From positions 4,265-68,264 of the forward strand of contig CAIOTT010000049.1 of the NCBI GenBank assembly GCA_903861305.1: DNA of 64,000 bases, in the 5' to 3' direction. Position numbers and translations under genes: made by a program. This stretch comes from Candidatus Omnitrophota bacterium (GTDB taxonomy: Bacteria; Omnitrophota; Gorgyraeia; Zapsychrales; Fredricksoniimonadaceae). The notes beneath the pieces are model-generated. The model ran no database searches, had not been told where the DNA came from, and saw only the letters and a list, made by a program, of their open reading frames with translations. This document shows positions 26,434 through 64,000 of the stretch, one piece after another (within the stretch, counting starts at the first letter, position 1; each line of letters opens with the position of its first letter).

Positions 26434-26461
26434 TTGACAATAAGATTTCCTTTGCTATAAT
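26434..26461 (+). promoter_or_regulatory. Consensus sigma70-type promoter heading the regulator/protease/glycan gene array
   Basis: Perfect TTGACA (26434-26439), a 16-nt spacer, and perfect TATAAT (26456-26461), within an AT-rich intergenic region. Confidence 0.65.
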
Positions 26462-26501
26462 CGTTCATTCTTTGAACAGTCGATGGGTCCGGGGCTTCGT
26501 T

Positions 26502-27080
26502 ATGGATGAGCGGGAATTTGAATTGATCAACATTATCGGAGGGGAATTGGGCGCCAGCCAGCGCGATATTTCCCGCCAAATGAACCTTTCTTTGGGCATG
26601 ACCAACATGCTCATCCACCGGCTTTTGACCAAAGGCCATATCCGCATCAAACAGCTTAATAAAAAGAAAGTTGAATACCTGTTGACGCCCAAGGGGTTTG
26701 CTGAAAAGATGCAAAAATCTGTTAAATACACGCTTAAGACATTGAACTCCATCGGGTTAGTTAAAAAGAACATAGAAGGATTGCTTGCGCGTTTGCACGC
26801 CGCGGGTGCGCGTAAATTTTATGTGCTGGGGGCTTCGGACCTCGCGGGCCTTATCGAGATGGTCCTTGCGGAAGAATTCCCCGGTCAGTATGAATTGTTG
26901 CTGATCGAAGAAGTCCAGGATGTCCCGTCTGACGGGATCATCCTTATATGCCGGGAAGGGGTTGTTGTTCATGAAGGCGTCCGCGCAGTGCAGGTGATCG
27001 ATGAACTTGCCAGGGATGAGGCCTTCCTGACGCAAAGCCTGGTTGAAGACAGGATTCTGGCACAAGGGGGTGTGGCATGA
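26502..27080 (+). CDS. Winged-helix (MarR-like) transcriptional regulator with a C-terminal Rossmann-like domain
   Basis: N-terminal wHTH pattern ASQRDISRQMNLSLGMTNMLIHRLLTKGHIRI..YLLTPKG. ATG 26502 is chosen because TTG 26472 would lie at or before the predicted transcription start site. Confidence 0.7.
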   Translation: MDEREFELINIIGGELGASQRDISRQMNLSLGMTNMLIHRLLTKGHIRIKQLNKKKVEYLLTPKGFAEKMQKSVKYTLKTLNSIGLVKKNIEGLLARLHAAGARKFYVLGASDLAGLIEMVLAEEFPGQYELLLIEEVQDVPSDGIILICREGVVVHEGVRAVQVIDELARDEAFLTQSLVEDRILAQGGVA

Positions 27081-27808
27081 AAAAGTATGGGTGGGTTCCG
27101 GATATACCGGACAGCAGGGACTTTTATTACAGCGCCATCAGGCCGAAATTGCGGGTGCAGGCTTCGGTCGACCTGCGCGTGCATTGTTCTTCAGTTGAAG
27201 ACCAGGGAAAATTGGGCAGCTGCACGGCCAACGCGCTTGCCGGGAATATTGAATTCCTGGACAAGGAGGCGGATGGGGCTTATACCGATGCCAGCCGCCT
27301 GTTTATTTATTACAATGAACGGGTGTTGCAGGGCAGTGTCGCGGCGGATTCGGGCGCCTCGTTGCGCAACGGGATCAAAACTTTGGCGGCCAACGGCGTT
27401 TGCTCCGAAAAGGTCTGGCCGTACATGATCGAAAAGTTCGCGGCCAAGCCCCCTGCGCGCTGTTATCAGGAAGGCTTGAAACACCGGATCGTGTCGTACC
27501 ACAGGATCGTGACGCTGGCGGACATGCTGGCGTGTTTATCCGAAGGTTTCCCCTTCGTATTCGGATTCACGGTCTATGAAAGTTTTGAAGACCAGTCGAC
27601 CGCGCGCACGGGTGTGGCCAAAATGCCGCGCAAGGGCGAGCGGGCCCTGGGCGGGCACGCGGTTCTGGCCGTAGGGTATGACCAGAAGGCGAAACGGTTC
27701 CTGGTGCGTAATTCCTGGAGCGAGGCCTGGGGGATGAAAGGGTACTTCACGATGCCCTTCGCGTACCTTGAGACGCTGGCGGCGGATTTCTGGACTATAA
27801 GGAAATAG
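27077..27808 (+). CDS. Papain-like (C1 family) cysteine peptidase lacking a signal peptide and propeptide
   Basis: Gln/Cys block [12 protein letters not shown], His block [11 protein letters not shown], and Asn-Ser-Trp block [10 protein letters not shown]. 4-nt ATGA overlap with the regulator gene. Confidence 0.8.
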
Positions 27809-27822
27809 GGAAAGGATTTTTC

Positions 27823-28854
27823 ATGCTTAACGGAAAGACGATCCTCATCACCGGCGGGACCGGTTCGTTCGGAAAAAAGATGGTCCAGATCGTGCTGGCG
27901 CAGTATAAACCGAAGCGGCTTATTATCTTCAGCCGCGACGAGCTCAAGCAGTTCGAGATGGCCCAGAAGTGGAATCCGCATAAATATCCGTGCATCCAGT
28001 ATGTGCTGGGAGATGTGCGTGACAAGGACCGCCTGATGCGGGTTTTCCAGGGCGTTGACTACGTCATTCATGCCGCGGCGCTCAAGCAGGTCCCGGCCGC
28101 GGAGCGCAATCCCGAGGAATACATCAAGACCAATGTGCAGGGCGCGATGAACATCATCGAGGCCTGCCTGGCCAACAAGGTGCACCGTGTGATCGCGCTG
28201 TCGACGGACAAGGCGTGCAATCCGATCAATCTTTACGGGGCAACGAAGTTGTGTTCCGACAAGCTTTTTACGGCCGTAGGTTTTGTGGGCGGGGAGACAG
28301 CGACAAGGTTCGCGGTGGTCCGTTACGGCAATGTGCTCGGCAGCCGCGGTTCAGTTGTGCCGTTCTTCAAGGAGCGCCTCAAGACGGGTGTGCTTCCGAT
28401 CACGGATGCCCGCATGACGCGCTTCTGGATCACGCTTGATCAGGCGGTGTATTTTGTGCTGGAATCCCTCAAGCGCACCAAGGGCGGGGAGATCTTCGTG
28501 CCGCGCATCCCGTCGATGAAGATCACGGACCTGGCCAAGGCCATCGGCCCCAAGTGCAAGCTCGAGGAAGTGGGTATCCGTCCCGGCGAGAAGATCCATG
28601 AGACGCTCATCAGCGAGGATGAGGCGCGCAATGCTGTCATGTTCAAGGACTGTTTTGTCGTCCAGCCGGACGGTGATCTCCGCAAGGATCTGGCGAAGGG
28701 AAAAGGAAAGCTTTGTCCCGAAGGGTTCGGGTACAACTCGGGCGACAATGACCAGTGGCTGAGCGTTCCGGCCCTTGGCAAGCTGGTCGAGCAGGTGGCG
28801 GACGATTACGCGATCGAGGATTCCCGCTGGGCGATGGATGATGTCCCGGAATAA
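27823..28854 (+). CDS. pseB: UDP-N-acetylglucosamine 4,6-dehydratase (inverting), PseB/FlaA1 type
   Basis: [19 protein letters not shown], and [17 protein letters not shown] are characteristic of PseB/CapD-type enzymes. Confidence 0.85.
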
Positions 28855-62600: not shown

Positions 62601-62642
62601 CGGGACCCCGGGGGGTTTTGTCCGGTCCGGCGATGGGAGAAT

Positions 62643-63329
62643 ATGGTGATAACGCGCGCGCTCCGGCCCCTCAGGGCGGTTATTTTTGACATGGACGACA
62701 CACTGTTTGATGAAATGCAGTTTGTGTCCGGTGGATTCAGGGCTGTTTCTGCGTTAGTTGCTGAGGCATGCCAAACGCCGGCGGAGCAAATTTATGATCG
62801 GCTTCTGGCGATCTTGTCGCGGCATGGACGGGGGCGGACGTTCGATCTTCTGTTGCAAGAGTTTCATCTGGAAGGAAAGATAAGTGTTGATCGTCTCGTT
62901 AACGTGTACCGGTCGCATGTTCCGCGGTTGACGCTTTATGACGATGCGCGCTGTTTATTGGGAGCTCTCAAGCGTGAGCGCTACCGCCTGGGCTTGCTTA
63001 CAGATGGTGATGCGCGTGTTCAGCGCAGCAAATTCTCAGCTTTGGGGCTTGAGGCTTATTTGGACGGCGCTGTTTTTTCTGATGATCACGGTTGCTGTAA
63101 ACCCAGCGCCGTGCCATATCTGGCCGCAGGAGAAAAATTAGGGGTGCCTTTATCCGAATCAGTTTATATCGGGGATAATCCCCATAAGGATTTTGTGACA
63201 GCGCGCAAGCTCGGCATGTTCACGATCAGGGTGCTGCGGGGGCCGTACAGGGAGGTCTGCCTTGAGCGGTCTTTCGAGGCGGATGCGCGGGTTAATGTGC
63301 TTGAGGAAGTTCTTGATGTCATTTCTTAA
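62643..63329 (+). CDS. HAD superfamily hydrolase/phosphatase
   Basis: Motif I VIFDMDDTLFD, motif II LGLLTDG, and motif IV YIGDNPHKD. Confidence 0.75.
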   Translation: MVITRALRPLRAVIFDMDDTLFDEMQFVSGGFRAVSALVAEACQTPAEQIYDRLLAILSRHGRGRTFDLLLQEFHLEGKISVDRLVNVYRSHVPRLTLYDDARCLLGALKRERYRLGLLTDGDARVQRSKFSALGLEAYLDGAVFSDDHGCCKPSAVPYLAAGEKLGVPLSESVYIGDNPHKDFVTARKLGMFTIRVLRGPYREVCLERSFEADARVNVLEEVLDVIS

Positions 63330-63373
63330 GCGGAGAGGGCCAGGATGCAAGGAGCAAACCGGAGGTTATCGTC

Positions 63374-63619
63374 ATGAATAACAGGGAAAAAATGTATAAG
63401 ATCTTGTCTGATGTCCTTGGTATTGATATCAATGCCATTGATGGGTCAACAGGCCTGGAAAATGTTGAGTCATGGGATTCTTTCAATGTCATTTTACTGG
63501 TATCGGAATTTGAACAGGCCTTTAACATAAAATTCACCATGCCGGAAGTCGAATGTTTCAAGTCTGTTAAAGATATCACTGATGTTTTGAAAAAAAGGAA
63601 CGTGGAGTTTCTGGATTGA
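63374..63619 (+). CDS. Acyl carrier protein
   Basis: 81-aa acidic helical protein with the phosphopantetheine-site context LENVESWDSFNVILLVSEFEQAF. Confidence 0.7.
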   Translation: MNNREKMYKILSDVLGIDINAIDGSTGLENVESWDSFNVILLVSEFEQAFNIKFTMPEVECFKSVKDITDVLKKRNVEFLD

Positions 63620-64000
63620 TGGGCCATAACCTGCTGAATGCCGATCTTGATGTTTTTGACAGCACCCGGGCCGTTTGGGTCGATGGTGACAAGAAGATAT
63701 TTCCACTGGATATCAAGCATGCCCTTGAAAAGATCGGCTTAAAAAAAGGCGATATTGTGATGTCGCATTTTGATCTGGGTGTTATTGGCAAACTGGGGGA
63801 TATCAAAGACGGGGATGAATTCTTTAATACCGTTATAAACACCATACTGGCTGTGGTCGGGTCCGACGGGGCGTTGATCGTGCCCGCCTTTTCGTATTCT
63901 TTTTGCAGGAATGAGGTTTTTGACATCGCCCATACGGTGCCGACGCTCGGACGTATGGCGCAGGTTGCTTTCAAGAGATACAAAGAGAACCAGGGCATGG
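63619..64000 (+). CDS. AAC(3)-fold (aminoglycoside 3-N-acetyltransferase-like) acyltransferase, 5' partial
   Basis: This ORF is not in the ORF track because it runs off the window. My translation from ATG 63619 (TGATG overlap with the ACP stop) is open for 127 codons. LEKIGLKKGDIVMSHFDLGVIG..ILAVVGSDGALIVPAFSYSF matches the Antibiotic_NAT N-terminal pattern. Confidence 0.6.
   Translation, partial: MGHNLLNADLDVFDSTRAVWVDGDKKIFPLDIKHALEKIGLKKGDIVMSHFDLGVIGKLGDIKDGDEFFNTVINTILAVVGSDGALIVPAFSYSFCRNEVFDIAHTVPTLGRMAQVAFKRYKENQGM

Follow-up and report, generated by a model that had tools for sequence, protein, structure and literature searches.

A + strand array of at least 44 genes and at least 47 kb from an uncultured Candidatus Omnitrophota bacterium is best explained as a surface-glycan biosynthesis island served by a regulated promoter at its head, with long polycistronic read-through and probable weak internal promoters, a reading to which a probability of roughly 0.55 is assigned. 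The array has a compact anatomy, a head module conserved among relatives, and no strong internal signals. It is plausible from the sequence that the whole block is transcribed as one message, in which case the transcript would be continuous along the array. The stretch of DNA analysed, referred to as the window, is 64,000 nucleotides long.

Within the window, 35 complete ORFs run on the + strand from 26502 to 63619 and a 36th is cut by the window edge, in agreement with the 36 co-directional genes counted from the promoter to the edge in the initial annotation. Non-coding DNA amounts to 376 nt of 37.5 kb, leaving the array 99% coding, and re-measurement of the junctions returned the same widest intergenic gap, 58 nt at 49890-49947, ahead of g23. 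Fourteen junctions overlap, 11 by four nt and three by 7-13 nt, although some of these figures depend on the start codon chosen (53647 TTG versus 53653 ATG; 39527 versus 39563). All nine 4-nt overlaps reported earlier are present, and those at 27077 and 63616 bring the total to 11, whereas the five additional overlaps of 1-13 nt come down to three. Pfam supports 32 of the 35 complete genes, and the remaining ones (g14, g18, and g20) have NCBIfam matches. Long - strand ORFs within the array, such as that at 30670-32475, were rejected as shadow ORFs, as were those produced by greedy ORF picking in the GC-rich window, the + strand genes in both cases being Pfam-supported. An outside gene call starts the HAD gene at GTG 62646, and the ATG-started version gave no exact match. 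The suggestion that the array runs on past 64000 holds: on a 109,423-bp ENA contig with identical proteins, eight further + strand genes occupy the next 10 kb, with a widest gap of 74 nt. The array size, obtained from the window and this near-identical contig, is a lower bound, as the view past the edge is the contig's gene table over 10 kb only.

Only two genes in the contig region seen are not on the + strand; outside the part of the array in the window, + strand genes number about 20 upstream in the window, six before the window and eight past it, and the upstream genes also show four-nt overlaps (3235, 4853, and 6252). Co-direction, which had been taken as a sign of a single unit, is therefore real but not specific to the array, and carries little weight. 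Tight packing, however, is specific to the array, since farther upstream this contig, although likewise + stranded, has gaps of 130-320 nt, promoters, and a hairpin at 9699-9722.

The head promoter lies at 26434-26461 on the + strand and consists of a -35 TTGACA, a 16-nt spacer and a -10 TATAAT, a 12/12 match with a TG one base 5' of the -10. Exact TTGACA-N16-18-TATAAT occurs twice in the window, the second instance preceding a - strand gene at 20191-20164 on the - strand, and two exact matches were reached in 0 of 100 shuffles. A putative palindromic operator, GTTCATTCTTTGAAC (GTTCA-N5-TGAAC; 26463-26477, no strand assigned), starts 1 nt past the -10 and therefore sits over the expected transcription start. 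This pattern has a single match in the window; genome loci totalling 1.23 Mb contain 34, and 23 of these lie no more than 200 nt upstream of the regulator gene. The head thus displays the features of a sigma-70 promoter with an overlapping putative operator: hexamers 16-18 nt apart, a palindrome over the start, and co-occurrence with a regulator gene.

The promoter recognised in the initial annotation is genuine, being kept together with the operator and the regulator gene in about 100 related loci. Among genome loci, 24 of 26 carry the trio, as do 74 of 77 independent metagenome loci. Promoter matches are 10-12/12 in 24 of the 26 genome loci and 9-12/12 in all 74 operator-bearing metagenome loci (42 at 12/12 and 27 at 11/12), and the operator starts 0-11 nt downstream of the -10 in 73 of these 74, with a 2-nt overlap in the remaining one. 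In 22 of 26 metagenome loci the genes stay on one strand from the regulator gene right up to where the retrieved DNA stops (at least 10.4 kb in most and about 7 kb in the two shortest), and in 21 of the 26 no gap exceeds 100 nt. Strands are mixed upstream of the regulator gene, and tight packing begins exactly at that gene.

The regulator, g01 (26502-27080, + strand), starts with a MarR_EPS-like winged helix and also contains a long helix and a small alpha/beta domain. Its 709 homologues belong chiefly to Omnitrophota. A sequence search of the PDB gave no useful match and Pfam gave a weak match to HTH_24, while the predicted structure (pLDDT 81.7) has MarR-family proteins and CggR as its top fold matches; by fold the winged helix is MarR-like, and the model predicts an extra C-terminal domain. 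The locus shares with MarR-family autoregulated operons and TIGR04176 a winged helix, a palindrome overlapping the promoter of the regulator's own operon, and an association with polysaccharide genes. However, g01 falls outside TIGR04176 (MarR_EPS), scoring 50.7 bits against a curated NCBIfam cut-off of 88, and its winged helix is N-terminal and not central as in the MarR family. Its layout is closer to that of CggR-type regulators, as a domain of roughly 90 residues with an alpha/beta fold comes after the winged helix. Co-occurrence of gene and palindrome suggests that g01 binds GTTCA-N5-TGAAC.

The genes behind the regulator, all on the + strand, point to a hypervariable surface-glycan island with a pseudaminic-acid-type core. 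A papain-like protein (g02, 27077-27808; Peptidase_C1 in Pfam), whose gene adjoins the regulator in a sister strain and lies near it in the related locus L002, is followed by PseB, the inverting UDP-GlcNAc 4,6-dehydratase (g03, 27823-28854; TIGR03589, 481.4 bits against a cut-off of 407.75). Profile matches identify g04-g08 (28876-33548) as a radical SAM protein, a GT9-like protein, a radical SAM/SPASM protein, and a transketolase split into N and C halves. These are succeeded by a B12-radical SAM protein, a methyltransferase, a radical SAM protein, an epimerase/reductase, and a sugar C-methyltransferase (g09-g13, 33545-38985); a WbuC cupin, a C-methyltransferase, a B12-radical SAM protein, and a GFO/IDH oxidoreductase (g14-g17, 38995-43354); two TIGR04372 glycosyltransferases on either side of an RmlD-like reductase (g18-g20, 43351-47077); and a PglK/MsbA-like ABC flippase, an FkbM methyltransferase, and a B12-radical SAM protein (g21-g23, 47071-51486). 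The start of g20 at 45449 is also picked by two outside gene calls. A fusion of an RmlD-like reductase (rmlD, residues 9-295) and the PseC aminotransferase (TIGR03588, residues 318-714; 482 bits against 423.5) is encoded by g24 (51497-53650). The module g25-g30 (53647-59056), which is kept beside PseB-PseC in many phyla, comprises an aldo-keto reductase, a class-III aminotransferase, a PseH-like GNAT protein, a CMP-sugar cytidylyltransferase, a TIM-barrel protein, and a PseI/NeuB synthase. The window closes with a methyltransferase, a PylC-like ATP-grasp ligase, a B12-radical SAM protein, a HAD hydrolase, and an acyl carrier protein (g31-g35, 59046-63619), and with the N-terminus of an Antibiotic_NAT-like acyltransferase (g36, 63616-64000, cut by the edge), a fragment that returned no matches as a homology query.

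PseB, PseC, and PseI (TIGR03586, 352.1 bits against 340.25) all exceed their NCBIfam equivalog cut-offs. The PseF model reaches 26.6 against 205.7, alongside a CTP_transf_3 match, and the PseH model 35.5 against 93.1, alongside a GNAT match; among the array proteins there is no clear PseG match, g05 being only GT9-like, and no Maf-type transferase was recognised. Most other taxa have PseB and PseC side by side, but here they lie 23.6 kb apart, separated by radical-SAM, C-methylation, transketolase, glycosyltransferase, and flippase genes. In total, the array holds four B12-radical SAM genes, three other radical SAM genes, two C-methyltransferases, the split transketolase, and an FkbH/ACP acylation set, a cargo that suggests unusual, heavily C-methylated nonulosonic-acid sugars. 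Two further B12-radical SAM genes lie immediately upstream of the array. The cargo behind the head is exchanged between strains: a sister strain with a 91% identical regulator and the same flanks and head carries legionaminic-type cargo instead. Genes g06-g08 are syntenic in L002 and in a second related locus, L010, and g10-g13 in L002, and island modules are arranged in other orders among relatives. Identity to Omnitrophota MAGs is 87% for PseB and 96% for GAPDH.

Gaps of 58 nt or less are too short to hold classical intergenic promoters or terminators. A sigma-70 scan of the array's + strand found no internal match of 10/12 or better, the head promoter being the sole strong match, although consensus scans are blind to weak, non-canonical, or coding-embedded promoters. 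The scan is informative for this organism, since promoters outside the array are consensus sigma-70 in intergenic DNA (20191-20164 at 12/12; 14924 at 10/12 with a TG), matching at 10-12/12 in AT-rich gaps of roughly 100-320 nt. Promoter-like matches inside the array occur at chance level and extended -10 motifs are rarer than in shuffles, but 9/12 sites lie close to the starts of g10 (35131-35158), g27 (55824-55851), and g33 (60873-60902). No sigma-54 or sigma-28 pattern is present in the array. The AT-rich island at 35757-35874 (24% GC) was rejected as a promoter, as it covers the last part of g10 and the N-terminal part of g11 and contains no promoter-like hexamers. Nor is there an acceptable -35/-10 pair in the 58-nt gap ahead of g23.

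About 64 terminator-like matches were found between 25 and 64 kb on both strands, all weak and all within ORFs, with counts close to expectation from shuffles (34 versus 21.7 +/- 6.0; 30 versus 22.7 +/- 4.7). No intergenic terminator was found in the array, and no scan match pairs a strong stem with a good T-run, in line with the earlier remark that no internal terminator of this kind was seen. Just past the g19 stop, at 45506-45524, a weak hairpin is accompanied by a T-run; it was rejected as a terminator because it lies inside g20, whose GGAGG-preceded start is the one shared with the outside calls, but it could attenuate transcription. A strong hairpin at 26786-26812 lies within g01, and the sister strain retains just part of it; it is therefore regarded as a coding coincidence. 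The array lacks an ops site even with one mismatch allowed, the Rfam scan of the entire window returned no family at gathering score, EAR included, and no window protein scanned has a Pfam match to NusG/KOW. Windows of 78 nt with a C/G ratio above 1.5 make up 0.7% in the array versus 2.4% upstream.

In the preferred reading, the regulator would bind the operator and keep its own promoter repressed. A ligand, perhaps a sugar-nucleotide or an intermediate of the pathway, would free it from the DNA, and RNA polymerase from the head promoter would then read across a long polycistronic unit. Near-zero spacing, the 14 start/stop overlaps, and a G-rich, C-poor message may keep ribosomes close behind the polymerase, so that Rho would find little naked RNA to load on and read-through would need no dedicated antiterminator. 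Weak promoters within coding sequence would probably boost the distal genes. Counting against this reading, any of the chance-level 9/12 sites could work as a promoter. The possible attenuator at 45506-45524, the mosaic make-up of the island, and the antitermination and internal promoters of other closely studied long operons such as pLS20 (PMC8191782) count against it too.

A rather unlikely alternative is that several independently promoted operons lie head to tail, with promoters in the 3' ends of upstream genes, and that the + run reflects regional strand bias in a compact genome. The near-uniform strand of the contig region and the sites near g10, g27, and g33 are compatible with this, as is the mosaic nature of the island, in which a 23.6-kb insertion splits the PseB and PseC modules and inserted modules may have carried promoters of their own; moreover, closely studied long operons usually prove to hold internal promoters, such as P29 of pLS20 (PMC8191782). 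Yet the array's promoter-like matches do not rise above chance or, on the + strand, reach the 10-12/12 of other window promoters, no intergenic terminator closes a unit, and the tight packing is array-specific and begins in relatives exactly at the regulator gene. The opposite extreme, the initial reading in its strict form of a single promoter and one transcript of at least 47 kb over every array gene with no internal starts, is decidedly improbable. It draws on the single strong promoter and single operator of the + strand array, 99% coding content, overlapping junctions, terminator-free gaps, and a G-rich message poor in Rho-loading sites, but weak or non-canonical promoters are invisible to a consensus scan and the polymerase would have to cover at least 47 kb without loss. 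It must also do so with no NusG paralogue (Pfam), ops site, EAR, or other RNA detected, whereas the 37-kb pLS20 operon needs antitermination (PMC8191782).

A bolder proposal, also improbable, is that the head is a cross-phylum 'docking platform' behind which whole glycan cassettes are swapped by recombination. Each would be expressed from the one regulated promoter as a message of at least 47 kb, with the near lack of untranslated RNA and the G-rich message standing in for an antiterminator. That the array is an artefact, a chimeric metagenome contig made of pieces from different strains, is extremely improbable. Assemblies do often break at the regulator gene (2-2.7 kb contigs L085-L087), showing strain heterogeneity at the locus, but identical proteins in the same order occur on the 109-kb contig, a 139.7-kb scaffold, and separate Logan contigs (40.2-51.4 kb and 52-61 kb), and the gene order is repeated in the independent assemblies L001, L084, L092, and the 109-kb contig, L001 being identical to the window.

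If one regulated promoter does serve at least 44 genes over at least 47 kb, the array would rank with the longest operons known from chromosomes, and would offer a natural way to gauge how far RNA polymerase can travel on tight translational coupling alone. The head, with its consensus promoter, GTTCA-N5-TGAAC, and MarR-like gene at about 100 loci, provides a poorly known phylum with a concrete regulon that can be tested, and serves as a simple sequence tag for finding hypervariable glycan islands in metagenomes.

The description of the array as exceptionally long calls for some reserve, since a precedent is documented and operons of such size therefore exist: the conjugation operon of plasmid pLS20 spans genes 28-74, 47 genes in 37 kb, behind the main promoter Pc with conAn antitermination (PMC8191782). 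It contains about 23 predicted internal terminators, requires an RNA-plus-protein antiterminator, and has the internal promoter P29; antiterminator families are listed in the same paper (PMC8191782). Both systems open with a control gene and have dozens of co-directional genes served by one regulated promoter, but neither intergenic terminators nor an antiterminator were found in the array, and the functions are unrelated. The Omnitrophota head likewise differs from RfaH/ops, UpxY, LoaP, and EAR operons in that no NusG-like gene was found among the window proteins scanned, nor any ops or EAR, which places it outside that class.

Pseudaminic acid biosynthesis and flagellin/surface glycosylation islands carry pseB, C, F, G, H, and I. 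The array shares PseB, PseC, and PseI above cut-offs, a GNAT protein, and a CMP-transferase with these islands, but differs in the tailoring genes that separate PseB from PseC, the fusion of PseC to an RmlD-like reductase, the sub-threshold PseF and PseH models, and the lack of a clear PseG or identified Maf-type transferase. Surface-polysaccharide loci in which the regulatory 5' end is conserved and the cargo varies from strain to strain include pneumococcal cps, enterobacterial O-antigen/capsule (JUMPstart/ops, RfaH), and Bacteroides PS (upxY/upxZ). As in those loci, a conserved head with a regulatory first gene precedes a long co-directional run of genes for sugar-nucleotides, glycosyltransferases, and export, and the cargo varies between close strains, here the window and the sister strain. 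The array is two to three times their typical length and, unlike them, is rich in B12-radical SAM enzymes, and its head protein is a winged-helix protein with a promoter-proximal palindrome and not a NusG-like antiterminator. The type of locus is already known and the array is a real, large case of it; the new part is the conserved promoter-operator-regulator head.

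The + strand array contains 35 complete ORFs over 26502-63619 and a 36th that is interrupted by the window edge and labelled Antibiotic_NAT in an outside gene table, bearing out the unbroken run of co-directional genes in the initial annotation. Pfam supports 32 of the 35 complete genes, and NCBIfam supplies the remaining g14, g18 and g20. When the most plausible start codons are used, the 35 junctions comprise 4-nt overlaps at 11, overlaps of 7-13 nt at three, gaps of 0-10 nt at ten, gaps of 11-30 nt at eight, and gaps above 30 nt at three, the largest being the 58 nt at 49890-49947 originally reported. 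All nine 4-nt overlaps listed at the outset were recovered, and those at 27077 and 63616 bring two more. Only 376 of ~37,500 nt are non-coding. The + stranded DNA 5' of the array on the same contig has gaps of 130-320 nt, promoters and a hairpin at 9699-9722, which makes packing this extreme specific to the array. A 601-aa ORF on the - strand (30670-32475), antisense to radical SAM and transketolase genes, was rejected as a gene: it has no family support and is the kind of shadow ORF common in GC-rich coding sequence.

Candidatus Omnitrophota MAGs give the closest genome matches, with PseB at most 87% identical; GAPDH is 96% identical to that of MAG nCal2bin1. A 109,423-bp ENA contig, a 139,727-bp scaffold and a number of shorter, independent contigs carry identical proteins, which excludes an assembly artefact as the source of the gene order. 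On the 109-kb contig the array goes on for at least 10 kb past position 64000, as had been proposed, with all genes on the + strand and a largest gap of 74 nt. These genes encode an Antibiotic_NAT-like acyltransferase, FkbH, a methyltransferase, a glyoxalase-fold protein, a DUF4910 protein, unknown proteins of 693 and 504 aa, and a radical SAM/SPASM enzyme. The array therefore spans at least 44 genes and at least 47 kb, both lower bounds set by the extension covered. A PAS-GGDEF-EAL protein is encoded by a single 1088-aa ORF in the window (11597-14863) but by two genes (401 and 676 aa) on the 109-kb contig, and coordinates shift by 1 nt between 9.7 and 9.9 kb, indicating that the window derives from a near-identical, not identical, assembly.

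The array forms an island of surface-glycan biosynthesis genes. PseB (g03), PseC (the C-terminal half of g24) and PseI (g30) score above NCBIfam equivalog cut-offs, and a module is completed by a GNAT, a CMP-sugar cytidylyltransferase, an aldo-keto reductase, a class-III aminotransferase and a TIM-barrel protein. In many phyla this module directly adjoins PseB-PseC; here PseB and PseC are separated by a 23.6-kb insertion (g04-g23) encoding three radical SAM enzymes and as many B12-radical SAM enzymes, a transketolase split in two, two sugar C-methyltransferases, a WbuC cupin along with several reductases, two glycosyltransferases of the TIGR04372 family, a PglK/MsbA-like ABC flippase and an FkbM methyltransferase. 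A methyltransferase, a PylC-like ATP-grasp ligase, a B12-radical SAM enzyme, a HAD hydrolase and an acyl carrier protein lie 3' of PseI. From this content we infer a heavily methylated, acylated, nonulosonic-acid-containing glycan built on a lipid carrier. The 717-aa product of 51497-53650 joins the PseC aminotransferase to an N-terminal RmlD-like reductase; in most other fetched loci the PseC match has no more than 43-53% identity and seems to lack the fusion. The 64 kb contain six B12-binding radical SAM genes (16380-18089, 24801-26246 on the - strand, 33545, 40799, 49948 and 60975), and there are four radical SAM genes of other kinds, three within the window and one past it, an unusual density for a sugar pathway. 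A papain-like protein (Peptidase_C1, weakly C39-like) is encoded at 27077-27808, at 11870-12601 in sister-strain locus L088 and near 6584 in related locus L002, and in several relatives its gene accompanies that of the regulator, also where the glycan cargo is another. With ACP, FkbH and ATP-grasp genes farther downstream, one might speculate that it transfers acyl or amido groups and is not a protease.

At the head of the array, the promoter scan recovered the claimed consensus promoter exactly, as a perfect TTGACA-16-TATAAT at 26434-26461 (+) with a TG one base 5' of the -10. Exact TTGACA-N16-18-TATAAT occurs twice in the 64 kb and in none of 100 dinucleotide shuffles. The second copy, a perfect TTGACA-16-TATAAT at 20191-20164 on the - strand, occupies an intergenic gap ~70 nt 5' of an AT3-SGNH acyltransferase gene (18111-20093, -) and has no GTTCA-N5-TGAAC operator, and the GAPDH gene is preceded by a 10/12 match with TG at 14924. 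As both sites precede genes, consensus sigma-70 promoters appear to mark true unit heads in this organism. A sigma-54-type -24/-12 match with one mismatch, TGGCGCACAGGTTGC, lies at 16194-16208 (+) in a 323-nt gap 5' of the B12-radical SAM gene at 16380; such matches occur in the window about as often as expected by chance.

One nucleotide 3' of the head -10 lies the palindrome GTTCATTCTTTGAAC (26463-26477), the sole occurrence of GTTCA-N4-8-TGAAC in the window. The first gene, g01, encodes 192 aa with an N-terminal winged helix that is very conserved, followed by a long helix and a small alpha/beta domain. In its structure model (pLDDT 81.7) the winged helix resembles MarR-family proteins and the two-domain layout resembles CggR, and its score against TIGR04176 MarR_EPS falls under the cut-off. 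The trio of promoter, palindrome and regulator is present in 24 of 26 related loci found with PseB, including bins labelled Elusimicrobiota, Thermodesulfobacteriota, Scalindua and Nitrospirota; promoters score 10-12/12, mostly with a 16-nt spacer, palindromes lie 0-11 nt 3' of the -10, and the regulator gene follows 20-120 nt downstream in most. Of 77 metagenome loci in a second, independent set, retrieved with the regulator itself as query, 74 have the exact palindrome, all 74 with a promoter of 9-12/12, perfect in 42. Across 1.23 Mb of genome loci, 23 of 34 palindrome matches lie at most 200 nt upstream of a regulator gene. The simplest reading of these sequence patterns is that g01 would negatively autoregulate through a putative operator, GTTCATTCTTTGAAC, over the transcription start, and that its C-terminal domain would sense a ligand. 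Operators are in tandem in five related loci, as an exact GTTCA-N5-TGAAC pair in L002, L007, L057 and L029 and with an imperfect second copy in L043, which suggests cooperative or graded repression.

An unbroken + strand run extends from the regulator gene to the fetched end in 22 of the 26 metagenome loci with enough downstream DNA, over at least 10.4 kb in most; these runs usually have no gap above 100 nt, and upstream strands are mixed. The sister strain, whose regulator is 91% identical, retains the promoter and operator and shares flanking genes (GAPDH, MTHFR, an acyltransferase, a methyltransferase-GT2 fusion and an unknown gene), but its cargo is a legionaminic-type cassette of LegB-like and LegC-like proteins, a NeuC-like epimerase, a PglD-NeuB fusion and a nucleotidyltransferase. 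Assemblies of the window population itself are frequently interrupted at the regulator gene. The head is thus a conserved anchor, and the glycan cassette behind it is hypervariable. In the sister strain (L088-L091), a 247-nt gap (10580-10826) and a DUF1016/YhcG nuclease-like gene between the regulator and peptidase genes look like an insertion scar or a mobile gene at the cassette boundary.

The initial annotation read the array as a single transcription unit, which is plausible from the DNA. The promoter scan agrees with it in finding no + strand sigma-70 match of at least 10/12 inside the array; promoter-like matches are about as frequent as expected by chance (18 against 11.9 +/- 4.6; 17 against 15.9 +/- 3.9), and extended -10 motifs are rarer than in shuffles (3 against 5.2 +/- 2.6), one of the three being the head promoter. 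Sigma-54, sigma-28 and ops patterns have zero matches in the array, and an Rfam scan of the whole window found no element. Terminator-like matches reach z ~1.5-2 in the array against ~4-5 in the 27 kb upstream, and windows of 78 nt with C/G above 1.5 make up 0.7% against 2.4%, so that Rho-loading sites are scarce in a G-rich message. The reported lack of internal terminators stands insofar as all the array's matches lie within ORFs, but is qualified by a weak hairpin with a T-run at 45506-45524.

That hairpin counts against one unit or limits the case for it, as do the 9/12 promoter candidates preceding g10, g27 and g33, the mosaic nature of the island, and the near-universal + orientation of genes on the contig region seen, which makes co-direction weak evidence for one unit. 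A division into several independent units is nevertheless less likely given the packing peculiar to the array and its lack of strong internal sigma-70 matches. Promoters may be embedded in coding sequence, and strictly one promoter with one transcript is more doubtful still. We favour, at a probability of roughly 0.55, a reading in which the head promoter mainly drives read-through, across most of the array or all of it, and starts inside the array are minor.

Operons in model bacteria usually reach a maximum of 16-23 genes (PMC9549626, PMC7814594). The array is large, as first described, but its length has a precedent in the pLS20 conjugation operon, in which genes 28-74 (37 kb) are served by one main promoter (PMC8191782). 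The pLS20 operon requires conAn antitermination, which passes ~23 predicted internal terminators, and in long polysaccharide operons the typical means are NusG-like factors or RNA elements, RfaH/ops, UpxY, LoaP and EAR among them (PMC8191782), whereas no antiterminator of these types was found at the array. Its standout features are its size, the lack of a recognisable antiterminator, and a head module of which the literature search found no description. The conserved signature of promoter, operator and regulator and the unusual sugar chemistry, rich in radical SAM enzymes, are the most useful outcomes. The array is a large case of a known class, that of regulated surface-glycan loci whose genes are co-directional and which combine a conserved head with variable cargo, and shares the logic of a constant anchor and a variable cassette with capsule and O-antigen loci.
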